From contig JAYVTU010000017.1 of NCBI GenBank assembly GCA_043788485.1, positions 1 through 36,697 on the forward strand: a stretch of DNA of 36,697 bases, given 5' to 3'. Of the stretch, positions 12,491 through 36,025 are shown one piece after another (position 1 is the stretch's first letter; each line of letters opens with the position of its first letter). This stretch comes from Planctomycetota bacterium (GTDB taxonomy: Bacteria > Planctomycetota > Phycisphaerae > Phycisphaerales > Zrk34). Made by a program: the position numbers and the translations under genes. The notes under the pieces are model-generated. The model had not been told where the DNA came from. It did not search any database and was given only the letters and a program-made list of their open reading frames with translations.

Positions 12491-12618
12491 GGGGGGATTC
12501 GGAGTTTCAAGTTTCAGAGTTTCAAGTGGGAAGTTAAAGGCAAGTCGAGGCGGGCATTTTACGCGATTTGTGGTGCGGTGTTTTCAACTTGAAACTTGAA
12601 ACACTGAAAATGGAAACT
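12491..12618. repeat. Long imperfect hairpin between queE and queD; arms are tandem GTTTCAAG / CTTGAAAC repeats capped by G6 / C6
   Basis: GGGGGGATTCGGAGTTTCAAGTTTCAGAGTTTCAAG ... CTTGAAACTTGAAACACTGAAAATGGAAACTTCAAACCCCCC, seen directly. Confidence 0.7.
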
Positions 12619-13314
12619 TCAAACCCCCCTCGTCTGCGGGTCCCAGATGAGCTTGTGGAGCTGGGTCTGGATGCGGACGGGGAGGTTGTCGCGGAGGGTC
12701 CACTCGGCGAGGTCGCGGAGGCTCAGGCCGGTGGAGCCGGCCAGTTCCTTTCCGGGCGGGGTTTCGTGGACGGCGCTCAAGAGGATGGCGGCGACGCGGC
12801 GGTCGAGGTTGTGCTCGGCGATCACGGATTTGGCCCAGTCGTAATCCTCGGCGCTGGTGAGAACGATTTTCACTTCATCGTGCGGCGTGAGGTGGGCGAT
12901 GTTGGCCCAGAGGTTTTTTCCCGTTTCGCCGCTGCCGGGTGTTTTGAGGTCCATGATGCGGATGACGCGGGGATCGCAGAGGGAGATGTCGCAGGCGCCG
13001 GAGGTTTCGATGAGGACGGTGTAGCCGAGGTCGGCGAGGCGCGACATGAGCGGGTGGACGTTTGCCTGGAGGAGCGGCTCACCGCCGGTGATCTCGACGA
13101 GTCGGCAGGGGCCGGCGAGGCGGTGGACTTCGGCGATGATTTCATCGAGGCTTTTTTTGGAACCCTCGTGGAAGGCGTATTCGGTGTCGCAGTAGCCGCA
13201 GCGGAGGTGGCAGCCTGTGAGGCGTACGAAGACACAGGGGAGCCCGGCCCGGGTGGATTCGCCCTGGATGGAGAAGAAGATTTCATTGATCTTGAGGGAA
13301 GGGGTGCTGCTCAT
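12619..13314 (-). CDS. queE: 7-carboxy-7-deazaguanine synthase (radical SAM)
   Basis: A QueE-type cluster motif CxxxCxxC variant (LTGCHLRCGYCDTEYAF), the IFFSIQGES start and the ITGGEPL motif are present. Confidence 0.88.
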   Translation of the reverse strand: MSSTPSLKINEIFFSIQGESTRAGLPCVFVRLTGCHLRCGYCDTEYAFHEGSKKSLDEIIAEVHRLAGPCRLVEITGGEPLLQANVHPLMSRLADLGYTVLIETSGACDISLCDPRVIRIMDLKTPGSGETGKNLWANIAHLTPHDEVKIVLTSAEDYDWAKSVIAEHNLDRRVAAILLSAVHETPPGKELAGSTGLSLRDLAEWTLRDNLPVRIQTQLHKLIWDPQTRGV

Positions 13315-24273: not shown

Positions 24274-24285
24274 TTGTTGGGTGGT

Positions 24286-24378
24286 TGGGGCAAAGGCTTT
24301 GCGTGCCCCAGTTTTTGGCGCGATCCAATGTGTGTCCAAGACACTGGGGCACGGCGACCTTTGCCCCAGCCACCCGGA
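24286..24378. repeat. Near-perfect long inverted repeat (about 34-bp arms) just after the stop of the large gene
   Basis: TTGGGTGGTTGGGGCAAAGGCTTTGCGTGCCCCAGT ... ACTGGGGCACGGCGACCTTTGCCCCAGCCACCCGG; no U-tract follows. Confidence 0.7.
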
Positions 24379-24756: not shown

Positions 24757-26988
24757 ATGTTCTGCGCTATGTTTGGTTCTGCGTTGAGTCCCGGATTGTT
24801 CGACCTGTCACTGTGGGATCTGGCGGCCAAGCTCAACTGGTTTGAGTGGCTGCTGGTGCTGACGGCGGTGGCGCTGTTCGTCGCTTGGTTGACGACGCGC
24901 TACATCCCCAACAACTCCGTCGGCGTCGTCGAGAAGCTATGGTCGGCCTCGGGCTCGGTCCCCGCGGGCGGCATCATCGCGCTGCGCGGCGAAGCGGGAT
25001 TCCAGGCGGACCTGCTGCGCGGCGGCGTCCACCCGGGCCTGTGGCGGTGGCAGTACCGCATCCACAAGGTGAGGCTCGTCACCATCCCGCAGGGCAAGAT
25101 CGGCTACGTCTATGCACGCGACGGCGAACCGCTTCCGCCCAGCCAGACGCTCGGGCGCGTTGTCGAGTGCAACAACTATCAGGACGCCGATGCGTTCCTG
25201 GTGCCGAGTGCGAGCAAACGGGGTGACGCCACAGCACCGACGCGCGGCCAGCGTGGCCGGCAGCGGGCGATCCTGCGCGAGGGTGTCTACGCCATCAACC
25301 CGGCGCTCTTCGTGGTCATCAGCGAGTCGGCGGTTTATTCGCTGCCTCACCTGCAGGACCGCCAGGAGCTCGAGACCGCGCGGCGCTGGCAGCAGGAGCT
25401 CGCGCAGACCGGCGGGTTCAGCCCGCTTGTCATCGGCGGCGCACGCCTCGAAGACCTCGCGGAGAAAACCACCGCCACATCCACCGATACGATCGGCATC
25501 GTGACCGTACAGGACGGCCCGCCCCTGGGCCCCGGCGAGATCATCGCGCCGGCGGTCGGTGTCGATCCGGGATTGCCGGGGTTCCACAACAACTACCAGG
25601 ACCCCGAAGCGTTTCTCGCGGCCGGCGGTCGTCGCGGCCGGCAGTACGTCCCGCTGACCGATGGCACGTACTTCCTCAATCACTGGTTCGTCAGCGTCGA
25701 GGTCGTCGCGAAGACGGTCGTGCCGATCGGATACGTCGGCGTGGTCGTCAGCTACGTCGGCAAGGCGGGGCGCGACGTGTCGGGTGACGCGTTCCGCCAC
25801 GGCGAGCGCGTGGAGCAGGGCGAGCGCGGCGTGTGGGAGAAGCCGCTCGGTCCCGGCAAATATCCCTTCAACACCTACGCCGGAAACATCATTCATGTGC
25901 CGACGACGAACTTCGTCCTGCACTGGATTACCGGCAAAACGGAGAGCCACAAGTATGACGAGAGCCTCAAGTCGATCGACCTGGTGACGAAGGACGCGTA
26001 CGAGCCGATGCTGCCGCTCTCGGTGGTCGTGCACATCGACTACCAGCGGGCGCCGAGTGTGATCCAGCGGTTCGGTGATGTGAAAAAGCTGATCACGCAG
26101 ACGCTGGACCCGATGCTCAGCGCGTACTTCCGCGACATCGCGCATCGCAAGACGATGCTGGAGCTGCTGCACGACCGCGATGTGATTCAGACCGAGGCCC
26201 GCGAGGAGCTCCGCCGCAAGTTCCGCGAGTTTGACATCGAATGCGTGGACGTCTTGATCGGCAAGCCCGACACGGACGAGACGCACGGTGTCAAGAGCGG
26301 CGCGGGCAAGATCGAGACGCTGCTGGAGCAGCTGCGTCTTCGTCAGCTGAGCTTCGAGCAGCTCGAGACGTACGAGCGGCAGCGGGCAGCAGCCGACAAG
26401 CTGCGTGCGCTCAACGAAGCGCAGGCGCAGGCGAACATGCAGACGCAGCTGACGAACGCGCGTGTGCAGGCGCAGATCGCCGAGTCGATGGGCGAGGCGG
26501 ACCTGCAGCGAGCGAGGAAACAGGCGGAGCAGACGGTCGTCGTCGCCGAAGCCGAACTGGCTCGCTCGCGGCGCCAGGCGGAGCAGACGGTCGTGCTCGC
26601 CGAGGCGGACAGCCGGAGCCGGAATCTCGCCGGCAAAGGCGAGGGCGAGCGGATCATGCAGGTCGGCACATCGGAAGCGGCGGTGCTGGTCCGCAAGATC
26701 CAGGCGCTGGGCGACCCGCGGTTGTACGCGGTTTCGCAGGTGGCTGAGAGTTTGAGCCACTCCGTGCAGCCGCTGGTGCCGCAGCGTTTGTTTGTCAGCG
26801 GCGGCGGAGCGGGCAGCGAGGACGGCCAGGGCCGGACGAGCCTCGGCATGCTGGGCGTGCTGATCGATCTGCTCGTGGCGGAAAAGACGGGCATGAAGCC
26901 CGGCGGCGGCGAAAGCGGTGGGGCGGCAGACGCTTCACTGATCACTGCAACGGCCGCAACGCCTGCGCAGTCGCCGGCCAAAGCGTGA
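24757..26988 (+). CDS. Flotillin-like SPFH/Band-7 family protein
   Basis: N-terminal TM, SPFH core (VVVHIDYQRAPSVIQRFGD), flotillin-type EA/AEQ-rich coiled coil, and a Gly-rich tail. Good RBS (AAAGGAG) 7 nt upstream of the ATG. Confidence 0.85.
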   Translation: MFCAMFGSALSPGLFDLSLWDLAAKLNWFEWLLVLTAVALFVAWLTTRYIPNNSVGVVEKLWSASGSVPAGGIIALRGEAGFQADLLRGGVHPGLWRWQYRIHKVRLVTIPQGKIGYVYARDGEPLPPSQTLGRVVECNNYQDADAFLVPSASKRGDATAPTRGQRGRQRAILREGVYAINPALFVVISESAVYSLPHLQDRQELETARRWQQELAQTGGFSPLVIGGARLEDLAEKTTATSTDTIGIVTVQDGPPLGPGEIIAPAVGVDPGLPGFHNNYQDPEAFLAAGGRRGRQYVPLTDGTYFLNHWFVSVEVVAKTVVPIGYVGVVVSYVGKAGRDVSGDAFRHGERVEQGERGVWEKPLGPGKYPFNTYAGNIIHVPTTNFVLHWITGKTESHKYDESLKSIDLVTKDAYEPMLPLSVVVHIDYQRAPSVIQRFGDVKKLITQTLDPMLSAYFRDIAHRKTMLELLHDRDVIQTEAREELRRKFREFDIECVDVLIGKPDTDETHGVKSGAGKIETLLEQLRLRQLSFEQLETYERQRAAADKLRALNEAQAQANMQTQLTNARVQAQIAESMGEADLQRARKQAEQTVVVAEAELARSRRQAEQTVVLAEADSRSRNLAGKGEGERIMQVGTSEAAVLVRKIQALGDPRLYAVSQVAESLSHSVQPLVPQRLFVSGGGAGSEDGQGRTSLGMLGVLIDLLVAEKTGMKPGGGESGGAADASLITATAATPAQSPAKA

Positions 26989-27558: not shown

Positions 27559-27658
27559 GTTAATGGGTTAATGGGTTAATGGGTTGATGGGTTGATCTGG
27601 GGTTGCGCACGTGCCGTTCTTCCACGTTAACCCATTAACCCGTTAACTCATTAACCGG
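27559..27658. repeat. Palindrome built of tandem GTTAATGG / CCATTAAC octamers in the divergent promoter/5'UTR region between sugE and the 27731 gene
   Basis: GTTAATGG x3 and GTTGATGG x2, about 30 nt of spacer, then GTTAACCCATTAACCCGTTAACTCATTAACCGG. Confidence 0.7.
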
Positions 27659-28286: not shown

Positions 28287-28601
28287 ATGTCCAGCAAGAA
28301 GCCCTCACGCAAGCCCACCCACTCCTCCAAGCCCAAGCGCTCGCCCGCCCCGGTCGCCGCCGCCAAGCCCCGCGCTGTCCGCAAGCCCGCCGCTGCCAAG
28401 AGCGTGACCGCCATCGCGACGACGACCAAGCCCGCGAAGTCTGTCCAAGCCTCGGCCCTGGTTCCCGTGATCACCGTGACCCACGAACAGATCGCCAGCC
28501 GTGCGTACGAAATCTGGGTCGCCAAGGGTTACCCCAGCGATCAGGACGCCCAGAACTGGGTCGAAGCCGAGCAGCAGCTGCAGGCCGAAATCGCGGGCTG
28601 A
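28287..28601 (+). CDS. DUF2934-family protein with a Lys/Pro/Ala-rich histone-H1-like N-terminus
   Basis: The C-terminal motif EQIASRAYEIWVAKGYPSDQDAQNWVEAEQQL matches the DUF2934 pattern. The N-terminal 50 aa are KP/AK-rich. Confidence 0.65.
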   Translation: MSSKKPSRKPTHSSKPKRSPAPVAAAKPRAVRKPAAAKSVTAIATTTKPAKSVQASALVPVITVTHEQIASRAYEIWVAKGYPSDQDAQNWVEAEQQLQAEIAG

Positions 28602-28609
28602 AAAAAATA

Positions 28610-28797
28610 GAGGTCAGAGGTCAGTGATCAGAGGTCAGCGGGATTGACCATCGCTGTCGCATGGACATGTTTTTCGTGCTCGTGCTCGTGCTCGTAAATC
28701 GTAATCGAATCTCCGGGAGGGGATCGATTACGAGAAACGATTATGAGCACGAGCACGATGGAAATTTGCTTTGGCTGCGCCTGACTTCTGACCTCTG
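28610..28797. repeat. Nested palindromic element: outer GAGGTCA repeats / CTGACCTC, inner CGTGCT-repeat / CGATTAC hairpin (copy 1)
   Basis: GAGGTCAGAGGTCAGTGATCAGAGGTCAG ... CGTGCTCGTGCTCGTGCTCGTAAATCGTAATCGAATC ... GATCGATTACGAGAAACGATTATGAGCACGAGCACGA ... CTGACTTCTGACCTCTGG. Confidence 0.75.
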
Positions 28798-28798
28798 G

Positions 28799-29095
28799 CT
28801 ACTTATGCCCCACGGGTCCGCCGCCCTGGAGGTATTTGTTGCGCACCGCCTGCTCGAGGTTCACGCCGTTGATGTTCGCCAGCGTGCAGAGCCATGCGAG
28901 TACGTCGGCGAATTCCTCTTCGGTATTCTTGCGGTCGTCACCGTGCAGCGCGGTGGCGAGTTCGCCGACCTCCTCGACAAACCACATGAACGTCGCCGGA
29001 GTGCCGCGCGCCGAATCGCTGGCGTAGTAGCGCTCGCGGATGTGCTGCTGGAATGATTCGAGTGTGAGGTTGTCGTTGGTCATTGGTGTTCCCAT
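28799..29095 (-). CDS. Small MazG-like nucleoside triphosphate pyrophosphohydrolase (YpjD-like single-domain)
   Basis: The EExGEL-type motif FVEEVGELATA and EEEFADVLAWLCTLAN are present. Start is ATG 29095. The longer GTG 29212 version would translate the upstream palindrome. Confidence 0.75.
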   Translation of the reverse strand: MGTPMTNDNLTLESFQQHIRERYYASDSARGTPATFMWFVEEVGELATALHGDDRKNTEEEFADVLAWLCTLANINGVNLEQAVRNKYLQGGGPVGHK

Positions 29096-29096
29096 T

Positions 29097-29166
29097 CTTT
29101 TCGTGCTCGTGCTCGTAATCGTAATCGAAAAATGGGACTCGATTACGATTACGAGCACGAGCACCG
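29097..29166. repeat. Second copy of the CGTGCT/CGATTAC palindromic element, immediately 5' of the mazG-like start codon
   Basis: TTCGTGCTCGTGCTCGTAATCGTAATCGAAAAATGGGACTCGATTACGATTACGAGCACGAGCAC. The arms are near-identical to copy 1. Confidence 0.75.
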
Positions 29167-29239
29167 CTCGAAGACTCGCTGAGCACGTGGGGAGGGAATC
29201 GTGCACGTGCACGTGTCACGTGCACGGCCGCGAACTATC

Positions 29240-31018
29240 ATGTCCGCCATGCAATCAGCGGTACAACCAAAATCCATCACGCAGTGGCGCACGCAGATCG
29301 CTCTGCTCCTCGCCTGGTTCCTCATGCTCGGTCTGAGTTTCCCTCGCCCCGGCCTCTGGCCTCTCGCGCATCTCGCCCTCGTCCCGCTCACGCTGCTCGC
29401 AATCTTCGGCCGCCCGCTGCGCCGCATCCGCTGGCTCACGTTCGCCTTCGGCACGCTCTGGTGGCTCTGGATGATCTACTGGATGATCCCCGTCACGTTC
29501 CTCGGCTACCTCGGCCTCTCCGCCATCGAAGGCTCGTTCGTCGTGATGTTCGTCGCCATCATCCAACTGCTCGTTGGCGATCGCTTCATCACCACGCCCT
29601 CCGGCTCCGCTCCGGTGTTAGCCGCAGGCGGAAGCCGGCGGGTCCGCTTCCCCATCCCCTTCATCCTCCTCATCCCCACGATCTGGGTCGCCCTCGAATA
29701 CATCCCCGGCGCCATCATCGTCGACGGCTTCCCCTGGTTCCTCATCGCCCACAGCCAGCCCACATGGTTCATCCAGATCGCCGACACCGTCGGCCCCTAC
29801 GGCGTCTCGTTCCTCGTCGCGATGACCAGCGGGATGATCATCGATGTCTGCGAATTTCCCGTGCTGCGACGCGATTCGCAAAAGCGCATCGATTTAACGT
29901 GGCGATCTGTGTCATGCGTCGGCATCTGGCTTTTGGCGATGGCCTGTGTGATCGGTGCAGCGATTCTCGAATTTAATACCGCATGGGAGCGACAAAGCAT
30001 CCGCATCGCCGTCATCCAGCCCAACGTCCCGCAGTCCAACAAAGATCACCCCGCGCCCGGGCAGGACCGCAAAGATTTCGATGAGATGCTCGCGCTCAGC
30101 GAAAAAGCTCTCGCCGAAAAACCCGACCTCATCGTCTGGCCCGAGACCATGGTGCCCCAGGCGCTCAACAACGAAAGCCTCCAGCATTACCCGCGACTGA
30201 CCCGCGCCGCCGAGTACCTCTACTATCACGATGCCCTCGAGAAATTCGCGGCGGTCCACACCGTCAACCTCATGGTCGGCGCCCACGCCTTCACCAACTG
30301 GCGCGAAGACAAAACGCGCGGCTACGTCTTCAAGGTGTTCAACTCCGCATTCCTCTTCAAACCCGATGGCCTCGATCAACGCTACTTCAGCAAGATCCAC
30401 CGCGTCCCGTTCGGCGAGTACATGCCCGGTGTCGAATCCATGCCGTGGGCCAAAGAACTGCTGCTCAAGCTCACGCCGTATGAATCGGACTACACGCTCC
30501 AGCCCGGCACGGAGTACGTTCGATTCGAGATCAATAAGCAACCGCAGGCGAGCGGCTCACCTCAATCTTTCCGCATCGCGACGCCCATCTGTTTCGAGGA
30601 CGTCATCAGCGACGTGCCACGCCAGATGGTCTACGGTTTCGATGGCAAGAAGCGAGTCGATGTGCTTGTCAACATCTCCAACGACGGCTGGTTCCACGGC
30701 ACGTGGCAGGGTCCTCAGCACGAGGCGATCGCGCGGTTCCGCTGCATCGAAAACCGCGTGCCGATGGCGAGATCCGTCAACACCGGCATCAGTTCGTTCA
30801 TCGACTCCGGCGGCAACGTGCTCGAACGCGTCGTCACCGACGGGCGTACACAGGAGGTCGCCGGTTTCGCCGTCGCCGATGTGTGGATCGACAACCGCGT
30901 GACGATCTACAGCCGGATCGGCGACGCCCCGGCGGTCGCGTGCCTCGTGGCGACGATCGGCTTGATCGCCGCGGCGATCGGACGCAAACTCTACCGCAGA
31001 CGCGGAGGCAAACCGTGA
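29240..31018 (+). CDS. lnt: Apolipoprotein N-acyltransferase
   Basis: An N-terminal polytopic membrane domain is followed by a CN-hydrolase domain with the catalytic triad context (IVWPE ... FKPDG...K ... ICFEDV). Start at ATG 29240 or 29249. Confidence 0.85.
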   Translation: MSAMQSAVQPKSITQWRTQIALLLAWFLMLGLSFPRPGLWPLAHLALVPLTLLAIFGRPLRRIRWLTFAFGTLWWLWMIYWMIPVTFLGYLGLSAIEGSFVVMFVAIIQLLVGDRFITTPSGSAPVLAAGGSRRVRFPIPFILLIPTIWVALEYIPGAIIVDGFPWFLIAHSQPTWFIQIADTVGPYGVSFLVAMTSGMIIDVCEFPVLRRDSQKRIDLTWRSVSCVGIWLLAMACVIGAAILEFNTAWERQSIRIAVIQPNVPQSNKDHPAPGQDRKDFDEMLALSEKALAEKPDLIVWPETMVPQALNNESLQHYPRLTRAAEYLYYHDALEKFAAVHTVNLMVGAHAFTNWREDKTRGYVFKVFNSAFLFKPDGLDQRYFSKIHRVPFGEYMPGVESMPWAKELLLKLTPYESDYTLQPGTEYVRFEINKQPQASGSPQSFRIATPICFEDVISDVPRQMVYGFDGKKRVDVLVNISNDGWFHGTWQGPQHEAIARFRCIENRVPMARSVNTGISSFIDSGGNVLERVVTDGRTQEVAGFAVADVWIDNRVTIYSRIGDAPAVACLVATIGLIAAAIGRKLYRRRGGKP

Positions 31019-31036: not shown

Positions 31037-31133
31037 CGGTTCGGGTGCCACTGGTCGGCGTCCTCGCAGACCAGTGTGTCTTGGGCGACAGACACTGGTC
31101 TGCGGAGGAACCGCCGACCAGTGGCACCCGCTG
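31037..31133. repeat. Near-perfect hairpin with about 42-bp arms and a 6-nt loop between lnt and the HEAT-repeat gene
   Basis: CGGTTCGGGTGCCACTGGTCGGCGTCCTCGCAGACCAGTGTGTC ttgggc GACAGACACTGGTCTGCGGAGGAACCGCCGACCAGTGGCACCCGCTG. Confidence 0.75.
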
Positions 31134-32163: not shown

Positions 32164-32358
32164 CCACAGAGGCACAGAGGCACAGAGACACAGAGGAAGG
32201 CACAAGCATTGAGATGGTGAAACACCAAGGCACCAAGGGCACCAAGGAATGCAAAAATGAAGGGAAAATGGCGTTGAATTCAAAATCTTTCCGCCTTCCT
32301 GCGTGACCTCGCTGCCTTGTTATCAAAATATCCCTGCCTTCCTCTGTGTCTCTGTGGT
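32164..32358. repeat. Tandem CACAGAGG repeats with an inverted CCTCTGTG partner, plus an internal CACCAAGG x3 tandem repeat
   Basis: CCACAGAGGCACAGAGGCACAGAGACACAGAGGAAGGCA ... CACCAAGGCACCAAGGGCACCAAGG ... TGCCTTCCTCTGTGTCTCTGTGG. Confidence 0.7.
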
Positions 32359-33640: not shown

Positions 33641-33667
33641 CCCCGAGCATCCCTCGGGGTTTTTTTG
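33641..33667 (+). terminator. Rho-independent terminator
   Basis: CCCCGAG-catcc-CTCGGGG followed by TTTTTTT. Confidence 0.75.
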
Positions 33668-33672
33668 TGTCA

Positions 33673-33843
33673 AAAAACTTTGGGGCAATGACGAATGACG
33701 AAATTCGAATGACGAATCAAATTCCAATGATCAAATTCCAATGGGGAAAGGCAACCGAAGGCTCCGTTTCGTCATTGGAATTTGGAATTTGATCATTGAT
33801 TCGTCATTCGAATTTCGTCATTCGTCATTACCCCAAAGCTTTG
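33673..33843. repeat. Very long AT-rich palindrome (about 70-bp arms) built from GAATGAC and AATTCCAATG tandem units, upstream of mreB
   Basis: CTTTGGGGCAATGACGAATGACGAAATTCGAATGACGAATCAAATTCCAATGATCAAATTCCAATGGGG ... CATTGGAATTTGGAATTTGATCATTGATTCGTCATTCGAATTTCGTCATTCGTCATTACCCCAAAG. Confidence 0.8.
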
Positions 33844-33997
33844 CGTCACGGCCGCATCACGTTATCATCTGCCGTGGTTTGCGTGACGCGATCACGGGGT
33901 GATCCGCAGCCGACAGACCCATTGAAATTTCCGCCGTGCGCCGGCTCCCCGCCATGGCGCCGTCGAAAGGTGGCCGCCGTTGAATCTGCTGGACAAC

Positions 33998-35035: not shown

Positions 35036-35040
35036 AACAA

Positions 35041-35115
35041 GGGTTCAGGGTTCGGGGTTCAGGGTTCAGGACTCGGCACTCCGAACCTGAATCCTGAACC
35101 CCGAACCCTGAACCC
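35041..35115. repeat. Hairpin of tandem GGGTTCA / TGAACCC heptamers between mreB and mreC
   Basis: GGGTTCAGGGTTCGGGGTTCAGGGTTCAGGACTCGGCACTCCGAACCTGAATCCTGAACCCCGAACCCTGAACCC. Confidence 0.8.
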
Positions 35116-35116
35116 T

Positions 35117-36025
35117 TTGATGTCTTCCTCCGCCATCAAATCACGTCGCTGGATCATGCCCGCCGTTGTCGCGGGGGCGCTGGTGCTTTCGATGCTGCCG
35201 GCGCGGTGGTGCGGTTATGCGCAGCCGCTGGCGGGGTTGGTGTCGCTGACGACGCGACCGCTCACCGGGCCGTTGCGCGTCCTCTCGGCACGCGTGATCC
35301 CGCAGCCTCCGGCTCCGGCGCTCGGAGCGGCACGCGACCTGAGCGAAAAACTGCGCGAGCAGGACACGATGCTTCTGGCGCTGCAGCGCCGCGTGCATGA
35401 ACTGGAACTAATCAACGCGGAACTGCAGGGCCTCAAGCGCCGGCTCGGTGAGTCGTACGTGTATCGCCGCGCCAATGTCATCGCGCGCGGCGCCGATGCC
35501 GCGGCGGGGTCGCTGCAATTGGATCTCGGAACACGTGAAGGAATCCGCCCCGGGCTCGCCGCCGTCGAGGGAGCGAGCCTGATCGGCCGTGTCATCCAGG
35601 TCGGCCCCGCGGGGAGCACGCTGCTGCCGGTCACCGCCCCGACCGCCGGATACATCGGCGTGATCTTCGCCCCGGCGATCCTTCCGCCGGAGGGATTGAC
35701 GGCGCAGCGGAACCGGGCGTGGCTGCTCAAGGCGGGACCGAATGAGCGGCTCATCTGCGAGGACGTCGATCGGCAGGCGTTGATCCAGGTCGGCGATTAC
35801 GCGCGGCTGCGCGATGAAGAGGGCAACGGAAGCTGGCCCGCCGCGGCACAGGGGATGATCGTCGGCGTGGTGACGGCGGTGACCGACAACGAGAAATCGC
35901 CGCTGCGCCAGCGCATCGAGGTGCGCCCGCTGATCTCGCCGCGGGCCATTGATGCCGTGACGATCATCGTCCCGCGGGACAACCCCTCGGATCACGCCGG
36001 TGGCGGCGGGGGAGGCGCGCCGTGA
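35117..36025 (+). CDS. mreC: Rod shape-determining protein MreC
   Basis: The position after mreB, an N-terminal TM, a short coiled coil (LALQRRVHELELINAELQGLKRRL) and a beta-rich periplasmic domain all fit MreC. Confidence 0.75.
   Translation: MMSSSAIKSRRWIMPAVVAGALVLSMLPARWCGYAQPLAGLVSLTTRPLTGPLRVLSARVIPQPPAPALGAARDLSEKLREQDTMLLALQRRVHELELINAELQGLKRRLGESYVYRRANVIARGADAAAGSLQLDLGTREGIRPGLAAVEGASLIGRVIQVGPAGSTLLPVTAPTAGYIGVIFAPAILPPEGLTAQRNRAWLLKAGPNERLICEDVDRQALIQVGDYARLRDEEGNGSWPAAAQGMIVGVVTAVTDNEKSPLRQRIEVRPLISPRAIDAVTIIVPRDNPSDHAGGGGGGAP

Follow-up and report, generated by a model that had tools for sequence, protein, structure and literature searches.

What two similar hairpins are doing on either side of a small mazG-like gene is the question raised by a 36,697-nt stretch (positions 1 to 36,697, forward strand) of contig JAYVTU010000017.1 of a Planctomycetota bacterium (assembly GCA_043788485.1; GTDB lineage Zrk34 of the Phycisphaerales). 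The stretch was analysed over its whole length and is called the window below, and coordinates without a locus name refer to it. An initial annotation had offered two answers, namely a mobile palindrome akin to repetitive extragenic palindromic (REP) sequences or miniature inverted-repeat transposable elements (MITEs), and a structure that regulates mazG translation. We lean, with modest confidence, towards the hairpins being REP/MITE-like non-coding repeat DNA that arose from microsatellite-like arrays, and not a mazG switch. They belong to a multi-phylum family with conserved unit polarity, one sub-lineage of which is mobile, and which is hypervariable at the level of its repeat units.

Two hexamer-repeat palindromes bracket mazG

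The hairpin beyond the 3' end of mazG (copy 1) and the one upstream of the gene (copy 2; Table 1) are both made of tandem hexamers. The arms of copy 1 (28674-28708 and 28724-28758) are 35 nt long and 83% complementary, are separated by a 15-nt loop, and read (TCGTGC)3 TCGTAA A TCGTAA TCGA before the loop and TCGA TTACGA GAAACGA TTATGA (GCACGA)2 after it. In copy 2, arms of 26 nt (29103-29128 and 29139-29164) are 100% complementary around a 10-nt loop, and read (CGTGCT)2 (CGTAAT)2 CGA and TCG (ATTACG)2 (AGCACG)2. Tandem Repeats Finder reported period-6 arrays at 28674-28695, 29101-29116, 29113-29127 and 29140-29154, all in spacers. When folded as RNA, copy 1 reached -50.6 to -63.6 kcal/mol and copy 2 -49.7 to -51.5 kcal/mol, with z-scores of -7.6 to -10.2 against dinucleotide shuffles, none of 200 of which was as stable; DNA folds of both copies were also significant (ca. 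-33 kcal/mol, z of ca. -8). The initial description of two hairpins with similar arms and unlike loops around mazG, about 340 bp apart, was therefore confirmed, the measured gap being 343 nt.

The pair is also, as had been claimed, the only hairpin of the window present twice. With up to three mismatches, the 27-nt arm matched only the two arms of copy 2 in the window (0.00 matches expected from shuffles), while copy 1, since it carries an extra A and a third TCGTGC unit, was found with shorter queries; the 14-mer CGTGCTCGTGCTCG occurred at 0-1 mismatch in copies 1 and 2 and nowhere else in the window. Besides their loops, the copies differ in unit number, in the extra A of copy 1 (TCGTAAATCG, a variant also present in loci L044 and L099), and in an extension module that adjoins copy 2 and not copy 1. 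On one side, ca. 9 nt beyond the stem are common to both (CATGTTTTT / CATTCTTTT), including a CAT-N-TTTT flank. Copy 1 is bounded by TTTT before TCGTGC and by TGGA after GCACGA, and copy 2 by CTTTT before CGTGCT and by CGCT after GAGCAC. No direct repeats indicative of a target duplication were found flanking either copy, and neither a terminator scan nor reading of the flanks revealed a U-tract 3' of either copy on either strand. At the gathering score no Rfam family matched the hairpins, and a permissive search gave nothing beyond chance matches, below threshold, to models of miRNA precursors.

The convergent spacer between mazG and a DUF2934 gene contains copy 1, and the divergent spacer between lnt and mazG contains copy 2. 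The nesting of copy 1 just 3' of mazG inside an outer palindrome, reported initially, was borne out: copy 1 lies 40 nt past the stop at 28799, and the outer arms (28609-28624 against 28781-28796) are paired at 94%. For the nested structure, folding gave -88 to -104 kcal/mol (-91.6 kcal/mol for the whole-structure fold). The parallel claim for copy 2, that it abuts the start codon and buries the ribosome-binding region in its stem, did not hold. The base of the stem is at 29102 and the ATG at 29083, with 18 unpaired nucleotides (GAAAAGAAUGGGAACACC) between them, and in a 161-nt fold of the mazG 5' leader this stretch and the AUG are essentially unpaired. The annotated start at 29083 (MTNDNL...) is common to orthologs; an alternative in-frame ATG at 29095 lies 6 nt from the stem. 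With the start region outside the stem, the geometry gives no support for translation control.

Five of the six frames are open through the hexamer tracts, which produce spurious open reading frames (ORFs) overlapping mazG (28938-29225, minus strand, and 28661-29056, plus strand; ...DYDYEHEHE... and ...VLVLVLV...), a likely source of mis-annotation. A small coding ORF in the DYDYEHEH frame was considered and rejected, as the length of the insert varies by non-multiples of three and some copies contain stops. A likeness of TCGTAAT / ATTACGA to the half-sites of a Zur box was considered and dropped, the spacing being wrong and the TCGTGC units unfitting.

A TCGTGC/TCGTAA family in more than ten phyla

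When the exact 20-nt arm core GTGCTCGTGCTCGTAA(N)TCGT was scanned against GTDB species-representative genomes, the matches comprised at least 119 stretches and more than 10 phyla; for uniform sequence we estimate a chance number of ca. 2. According to the record titles, the matches listed include Planctomycetota (Pirellula, Planctomycetaceae, Kuenenia), Chthoniobacterales, Opitutus, Victivallales, Acidobacteriota, Sumerlaeota, Hydrogenedentota, Rifleibacteriota, Nitrospiraceae, Gemmatimonadota, Desulfobacterota and others, together with a few on contigs labelled Bacteroidota, Fibrobacterota or Bacillota. Several matches lie on contigs of 0.5-5 Mb, so that misbinning does not explain the spread over phyla. 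The metagenome-assembled genome (MAG) JAJFUE01 has at least roughly two dozen matches; the genome of the window, which has two copies in its 36.7 kb, was not among the matches listed.

The common form of the family is (TCGTGC)n (TCGTAA)n TCGA, often preceded by a T-run, with TCGT/ACGA recurring every 6 nt and two variable bases (GC, AA, TC or AC) in between. Among the matches listed, 35 of 110 tracts have an inverted partner arm on the side of the AT-rich units, against 5 with one on the opposite side, so the AT-rich units face the loop and the polarity of the units is conserved; two thirds of the tracts have no partner arm. Folding of family loci gave long hairpins of the window type in many phyla. 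The tracts are mostly intergenic and occur between genes in all orientations (21 convergent, 33 co-directional and 11 divergent among the matches listed). An association with start codons, like that of TAACTGA repeats, was considered and abandoned: a crude ORF test was suggestive, but the count of gene contexts showed no preference.

A sub-family, found in 21 places, has one arm extended at its outer end by the module GTGCTC-AGCGAAGCG-GTGCTC. Its loci include Pirellula, Pirellulaceae, Planctomycetaceae and Kuenenia, and contigs labelled Bacteroidota or Bacillota. The insert of the module agrees in many copies with GCGNAGC / GCGNNAGC, the consensus of a very stable DNA mini-hairpin (PMC13037366), and in locus L021 the module carries GTGAAAC, an apparent compensatory change in the mini-stem; the variant beside copy 2 does not fit the consensus.

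In one sub-lineage the hairpin is part of a transposable element. Alignment of loci L031 and L039, two contigs of one Planctomycetaceae MAG, with L110 from another genome revealed a 206-bp element with sharp ends (approx. 3236-3441 in L031), 13-bp terminal inverted repeats (GGCTCTGTAGAAA / TTTCTACAGAGCC) and 9-bp target duplications (GGTCACCCG in L031 and CTCCCGACC in L110; an 8/9 match in L039). The insertion site is common to L039 and L110, and L031 represents a second site in the same MAG as L039. The core of the element is a hexamer hairpin with an AGCG(A/C)AGCG module, which is also found beside copy 2. We conclude that the 206-bp element, inserted at two sites or more, is a classical MITE. 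Its terminal repeat GGCTCTGTAGAAA is absent from the window, as are the ends of a second repeated element, seen in Sumerlaeia.

That second element, ca. 130 nt long with long inverted ends (TTAGAGCGCTTGACGAAAGTTATCGG ... CCGGAAAACTTTTGTCAATCACTCTAAAGA), surrounds the single-armed tracts of Sumerlaeia and 'bin.378' MAGs (L010, L011, L048, L055, L059, L068, L077, L097, L104 and L113), one MAG having at least roughly two dozen matches. In locus L084 (800-3000), ca. 2-3 kb free of any convincing gene is dense in tandem repeats (ACTAGCA, CCCATCT, TGACACC) and includes four copies of a unit of ca. 156-300 nt, each with the hexamer module.

The family of hexamer-repeat palindromes is apparently undescribed so far. 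No paper or Rfam family dealing with it, or with the wider class of hairpins treated below, was found, in a literature coverage that was incomplete and does not prove novelty.

History of the two sites among relatives

Related loci were gathered through MazG homologs. Relatives with a MazG 77-81% identical to that of the window already have a related, degenerate tract at the site upstream of mazG. In L206 the site reads GGAATCGATTACGATGACG and holds TCGATTACGATGACG; L002 has AATCGG-GAAA-CCGATTACGAGAACGAGAAC; and in L209/L210 the tract is two-armed, with a degenerate left arm, a 43-nt loop and TCGATTACGATTAC...(GAGAAC)n, where the window has the long perfect palindrome. Since the site is occupied in relatives, copy 2 is an old resident that was expanded and homogenised in the lineage of the window and not a recent insertion. 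L209 and L210 have the same MazG and share ca. 510 nt that are identical except inside the tract, where they differ by an indel of one 6-nt unit and by a switch from GAGAAC to GATTAC, that is, between canonical unit types. These differences are direct evidence of microsatellite-like instability with templated unit replacement.

A different picture was obtained 3' of mazG. The spacer there is 198 nt long in the window, with the outer palindrome and copy 1, and is empty in L209/L210 (0-1 nt), L206 (18 nt) and the isolate Planctomycetales bacterium ZRK34 (CP050848.1; L211, 20 nt). It contains a hairpin of other units in L207 (98 nt), and a GTTTCAR-heptamer hairpin that has no hexamer element inside in L002 (126 nt). 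Copy 1 and its host palindrome are thus lineage-specific gains, and individual copies are dispensable, as sites can be empty in relatives. As to presence or absence, comparison of orthologous loci gave a mixed answer: empty sites for copy 1 (in three relatives), and related tracts at the site of copy 2. In 339 kb of unselected MazG-centred loci, TCGT-type arrays occurred only at the site upstream of mazG, in the closest relatives of the window. Copy 1 may derive from copy 2 by copying, or may have arrived independently of it.

In L207/L208, whose MazG is 81% identical, eight tandem 8-mers (CAGTCAAC / CGATCAAC; 225-313) run up to the mazG start codon, and another tandem-repeat array extends to the end of the contig.

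Hairpins with other tandem-repeat arms

Intergenic hairpins with short-tandem-repeat arms form a larger class, to which the TCGTGC/TCGTAA family belongs as one type. About nine further intergenic hairpins of the window have arms of tandem 6-8-mers of unrelated units (Table 1), and such hairpins occupy roughly 10 of ca. 24 spacers (ca. 40%) in every gene orientation. The AGGGTTC hairpin, a perfect 32-bp stem, takes up almost all of the mreB-mreC spacer, beginning 3 nt behind the mreB stop codon and ending 2 nt in front of the mreC ATG. The same spacer is 12 nt long in the syntenic locus L002 and holds a CGTTCCG hairpin in isolate ZRK34, in which the lnt-mazG spacer is taken by an AATGACC-heptamer hairpin. 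As hairpins of this kind are found in the complete ZRK34 genome and in independent assemblies, an assembly or MAG artefact was rejected. Units recur among unrelated loci more often than by chance, AATGACG and AATCCGC in three loci each.

Selection at the RNA level was sought in the asymmetry of G.U pairs. Pairing in the stems is near-perfect, and in ten hairpin regions of the window G.U pairs showed no consistent bias to the sense strand, so RNA-level selection was rejected on this test.

Several further observations concern the class. Locus L137, an unrelated metagenomic contig with a MazG of 61% identity, has close counterparts (2821-2955 and 516-538) of the window hairpin at 33667-33849 and of 32165-32196; the shared arms are the compound AATGACG/AAATTCG/AAATTCC and CACAGAGG, and the loci differ, which suggests that several distinct hairpin families are shared between genomes. 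A small, canonical-looking terminator (CCCTCGGGG followed by T7; 33645-33666) lies directly before the 183-nt hairpin at 33667, and the large hairpins are therefore not the ordinary terminators of this genome. The AGGGTTC stem, 2 nt from the mreC ATG, raises the question of how mreC is translated. Two long intergenic hairpins of the window (24279-24375 and 31042-31130) are without repeat arms.

Genes and other features of the window

Thousands of homologs of the mazG product are available, the nearest non-self ones at 74-81% identity; it is identical to P0001. Read in the direction of mazG, the outer stem followed by U7 would resemble an intrinsic terminator. The terminator scan takes loops of 3-8 nt only and cannot detect the outer palindrome. 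The (CGTGCA)n / CACGTG tract, of alternating purines and pyrimidines, is conserved in L002 (5968-6000) and partly in L206, overlaps the sole sigma-70-like match (29213-29241, plus strand), and may be an operator or promoter element for lnt. The sole Rfam hit in the window is a cyclic di-AMP riboswitch (RF00379, 24479-24663, plus strand; 55.3 bits, gathering score 38). It follows the non-repeat hairpin at 24279-24375, in a 484-nt spacer that leads up to a Band 7/SPFH-domain gene (24757-26988).

Table 1. Coordinates of the palindromes, neighbouring genes and tandem-repeat hairpins in the window
Feature	Coordinates	Strand	Description
Copy 1, hexamer-repeat palindrome	28674..28758		imperfect, 83% paired; interior of outer palindrome, 40 nt beyond mazG stop
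Copy 2, hexamer-repeat palindrome	29102..29166		perfect 26-27 bp stem; divergent lnt-mazG spacer
Extension module beside copy 2	29165..29186	-	GTGCTC AGCGAGTCTTCGAGCG (GTGCTC...); 8 nt longer than family module
mazG-like nucleotide pyrophosphohydrolase, 94 aa	28799..29083	-	Pfam MazG PF03819, E = 8.9e-10
DUF2934 gene	28287..28601	+	convergent with mazG; stop 7 nt before outer palindrome
lnt (apolipoprotein N-acyltransferase)	29240..31018	+	divergent from mazG; putative start at 29240, from ACTATCATG conserved in L002 and L206
Outer palindrome, left arm	28609..28638		four heptamers in tandem: AGAGGTC AGAGGTC AGTGATC AGAGGTC
Outer palindrome, right arm	28781..28797		CTGACTTCTGACCTCTG; pairs with 28609-28624
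A7 on plus strand (U7 in mazG-sense transcript)	28602..28608	-	directly after outer stem; read from sequence
(CGTGCA)n / CACGTG self-complementary tract	29200..29226		between copy 2 and lnt start; tandem-repeat hairpin, unit CGTGCA
Tandem-repeat hairpin	12498-12624		unit AGTTTCA
Tandem-repeat hairpin	27559-27656		unit GTTAATGG
Tandem-repeat hairpin	28609-28797		unit AGAGGTC
Tandem-repeat hairpin	32165-32356		unit CACAGAGG
Tandem-repeat hairpin	33667-33849		unit AATGACG / AAATTCC
Tandem-repeat hairpin	35039-35117		unit AGGGTTC

Origin of the hairpins and alternative explanations

Of the two initial proposals, mobility was thus upheld in part: the element recurs in many phyla, one of its sub-lineages is a true MITE, and the site of copy 1 is empty in relatives, but the window copies have neither terminal repeats nor a duplication, copy 2 is not recent, and the hallmarks of REP sequences are missing. 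Regulation of mazG translation was not supported, as the start region is outside the stem, relatives have a single arm or other units, and the element is also found 3' of the gene. A history of repeat DNA would run as follows. The number and type of units would shift fast by replication slippage and conversion between neighbouring units, the resulting change being the one seen between L209 and L210. Complementarity of the arms would be kept at the DNA level by intra-strand template switching (quasipalindrome correction), and not by selection on RNA. New copies would arise by ectopic copying or insertion, with tolerant spacers and the interiors of existing palindromes as preferred targets; landing in the latter would lead to nesting, and the same nested arrangement is found in L086 and L143. 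In some genomes (L031, L039 and L110) the hairpin is carried inside a classical MITE. Once transcribed, stems of ca. -50 kcal/mol would block exonucleases or polymerases; such secondary, REP-like effects on transcripts are plausible and are not needed to explain the data.

Several observations weigh against this history. The recurrence of exactly TCGTGC and then TCGTAA, together with the AGCGAAGCG module, across phyla is the main unexplained fact: slippage alone predicts neither two units in one order nor a shared module, and their recurrence suggests sequence-specific recognition or horizontal spread. Phages are no obvious vector, only four matches having been found among IMG/VR viral contigs. 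For the two copies of the window, neither a target duplication nor terminal repeats other than the arms themselves were seen. The site of copy 2 has long been occupied, and tandem-repeat hairpins recur in the same spacers of different lineages, so that selection for structure fits as well as tolerance to insertion. Template switching and slippage themselves we infer from the pattern of the sequences.

Alternatively, the hairpins may be functional RNAs, copy 1 with the outer palindrome ending and protecting the convergent DUF2934 and mazG transcripts and copy 2 serving as a 5'-untranslated-region hairpin or insulator; for the class as a whole, they could set differential mRNA stability as REP sequences do in operons, mreB-mreC being an example. 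The U7 after the outer stem on the mazG-sense strand, the nested fold of -88 to -104 kcal/mol, the excess of convergent (21) over divergent (11) spacers among the family tracts listed, and the presence of hairpins of unrelated units in the same spacers (lnt-mazG and mreB-mreC) of the window and ZRK34, which could mean selection on structure, are all consistent with this possibility. We nevertheless regard it as rather unlikely, since neither hexamer copy has a U-tract in either direction, two thirds of the family tracts have no partner arm, no sense-strand G.U bias was seen, and a canonical terminator stands beside one big hairpin; relatives with 0-20 nt of hairpin-free spacer 3' of mazG, or with 12 nt between mreB and mreC, show such structures to be dispensable. 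A narrower version, in which copy 2 regulates mazG through its 5' leader, the stem occluding the ribosome or acting as a sensor, appears very unlikely. It is true that, with the base of the stem 18 nt from the ATG and 6 nt from the ATG at 29095, a bound 30S subunit would abut the stem, that an (NNACGA)n tract is retained just upstream of mazG in several relatives, and that TAACTGA heptamers just upstream of start codons have been proposed as post-transcriptional sites (PMC4679880). However, the start region is unpaired in the leader fold, the site holds one arm or other units in relatives (8-mers in L207, AATGACC heptamers in ZRK34), the hairpin may lie outside the mazG mRNA, and the same element also lies 3' of mazG and, across genomes, occurs in every orientation, with no preference for start codons.

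The identity of the units across phyla would be explained if the TCGT-hexamer tracts served as arrays recognised by a conserved single-strand binder (of DNA or RNA) or by an HUH-type enzyme, with the palindrome and the mini-hairpin module as substrate. The TCGT/ACGA period of 6 nt, the conserved unit order and the T-run that often precedes the tract would suit such a role, as would the frequent fit of the module to GCGNAGC / GCGNNAGC (PMC13037366) and the apparently compensatory GTGAAAC of L021; a period of 6-7 nt would in turn suit single-strand binders and not duplex phasing. Yet no candidate protein was found, one binder cannot explain a class whose other hairpins use unrelated units, and the hairpin-bearing MITE makes 9-bp duplications, typical of DDE and not of HUH transposition, which leaves recognition arrays clearly improbable in our judgement. 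The least credible alternative is a purely local duplication, in which copy 1 was derived from copy 2 ca. 430 nt away with no relation to a wider family. The proximity of the two copies (within 500 nt), the lack of any other copy outside the mazG-upstream site in 339 kb of unselected related loci, and the common CAT-N-TTTT flank point in that direction. But the wider family exists, a T-run flank is common in it, and the copies differ in unit number, loop, the extra A (TCGTAAATCG, also in L044 and L099) and the AGCG...AGCG module, which is found in copy 2 only.

We thus return to repeat DNA derived from microsatellite-like arrays as the preferred explanation. A more far-reaching idea, which we put forward tentatively and hold to be doubtful, is that the TCGTGC/TCGTAA palindromes, perhaps with the whole class, are a distinct, undescribed repeat element with a propagation or recognition machinery of its own. 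The fixed unit order, the T-run and the DNA mini-hairpin module (GCGNAGC) may speak for it, and the machinery could be a protein reading TCGT every 6 nt on single-stranded DNA or RNA. Identity across phyla would then reflect machinery, and not chance or ordinary MITE traffic.

If the preferred explanation is correct, self-renewing hairpins that tolerate a distance of only 2-3 nt from stop and start codons would fill ca. 40% of the window's spacers and perhaps a similar fraction over the whole genome. This would bear on operon expression in Planctomycetota and allied phyla, on MAG assembly, as contigs tend to break at such repeats, on annotation, through spurious ORFs, and on the old question of why specific 6-8-nt tandem repeats recur in distant phyla. 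The TCGT-hexamer family, with one clearly mobile sub-lineage, offers a sharply defined and easily searchable test case.

Comparison with known systems

With U7 directly behind it on the mazG-sense strand, the outer AGAGGTC palindrome is similar to an intrinsic terminator. The hexamer hairpins differ from one in that they have no U-tract, have stems ca. three times the usual length, and are also found between divergent genes. In fungal and algal mitochondria, double-hairpin and palindromic microsatellite-like elements (PMC7218506 and references therein) likewise unite palindromes and tandem repeats; they go along with indels, may be present in one and absent from another of two close relatives, and are suspected of mobility. 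These elements are organellar and unrelated in sequence, however, and the resemblance is structural only, with no sign of shared ancestry.

REP sequences have stems of 5-13 bp, loops of 2-20 nt and an unpaired GTAG or CGTC tag at one end, reach tens to thousands of copies per genome, and are linked to the REP-associated tyrosine transposase RAYT, a Y1 transposase (PMC3733652). They and the bacterial interspersed mosaic elements (BIMEs) that they form share with the hairpins described here an extragenic location, palindromic structure, multiple copies, a distribution over many phyla including bacteria of the Planctomycetes-Verrucomicrobia-Chlamydiae group, and frequent nesting or pairing (PMC3733652). 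In both cases single sites are dispensable and effects on mRNA are proposed only as secondary. The window loops of 10 and 15 nt are within the REP range, but the stems, 26-35 bp of tandem hexamers, are far outside the 5-13 bp of REP sequences, and a GTAG/CGTC tag was sought in the flanks of both copies and not found; identity with REP sequences was rejected on stem size and tag. The number of units also varies, and two thirds of the hexamer family (among the matches listed) is single-armed.

Likeness to MITEs is seen in the terminal repeats and target duplications of the 206-bp element and in the presence or absence of copy 1 at its site. The window copies, in contrast, lack a duplication and any terminal repeat other than the hairpin arms, and copy 2 is orthologously old; within the 206-bp element itself, the hexamer hairpin is internal cargo and not a transposon end.

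Short tandemly repeated repetitive (STRR) heptamers of cyanobacteria are intergenic, long simple-sequence repeats. Like them, and like TAACTGA (PMC4679880) and the GGGNATC repeats of Xanthomonas and Nostoc (PMC4692102), the hexamer family has units of 6-8 nt in 2-6 or more tandem copies, an intergenic bias, variable copy number, and an occurrence in distant phyla with no known vector or function. Both window copies consist of head-to-tail 6-9-nt units in non-coding DNA, and unit number varies between close strains, as L209 and L210 show. Simple-sequence repeats of these kinds are described as direct repeats, a single 'indirect repeat' having been reported among 170 sets (PMC4679880), whereas mirroring is seen in the two copies of the window and in 35 of 110 family tracts among the matches listed. 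The hexamer arrays are, in addition, compound, with two unit types in fixed order, and one third of them are mirrored into long, perfect hairpins.

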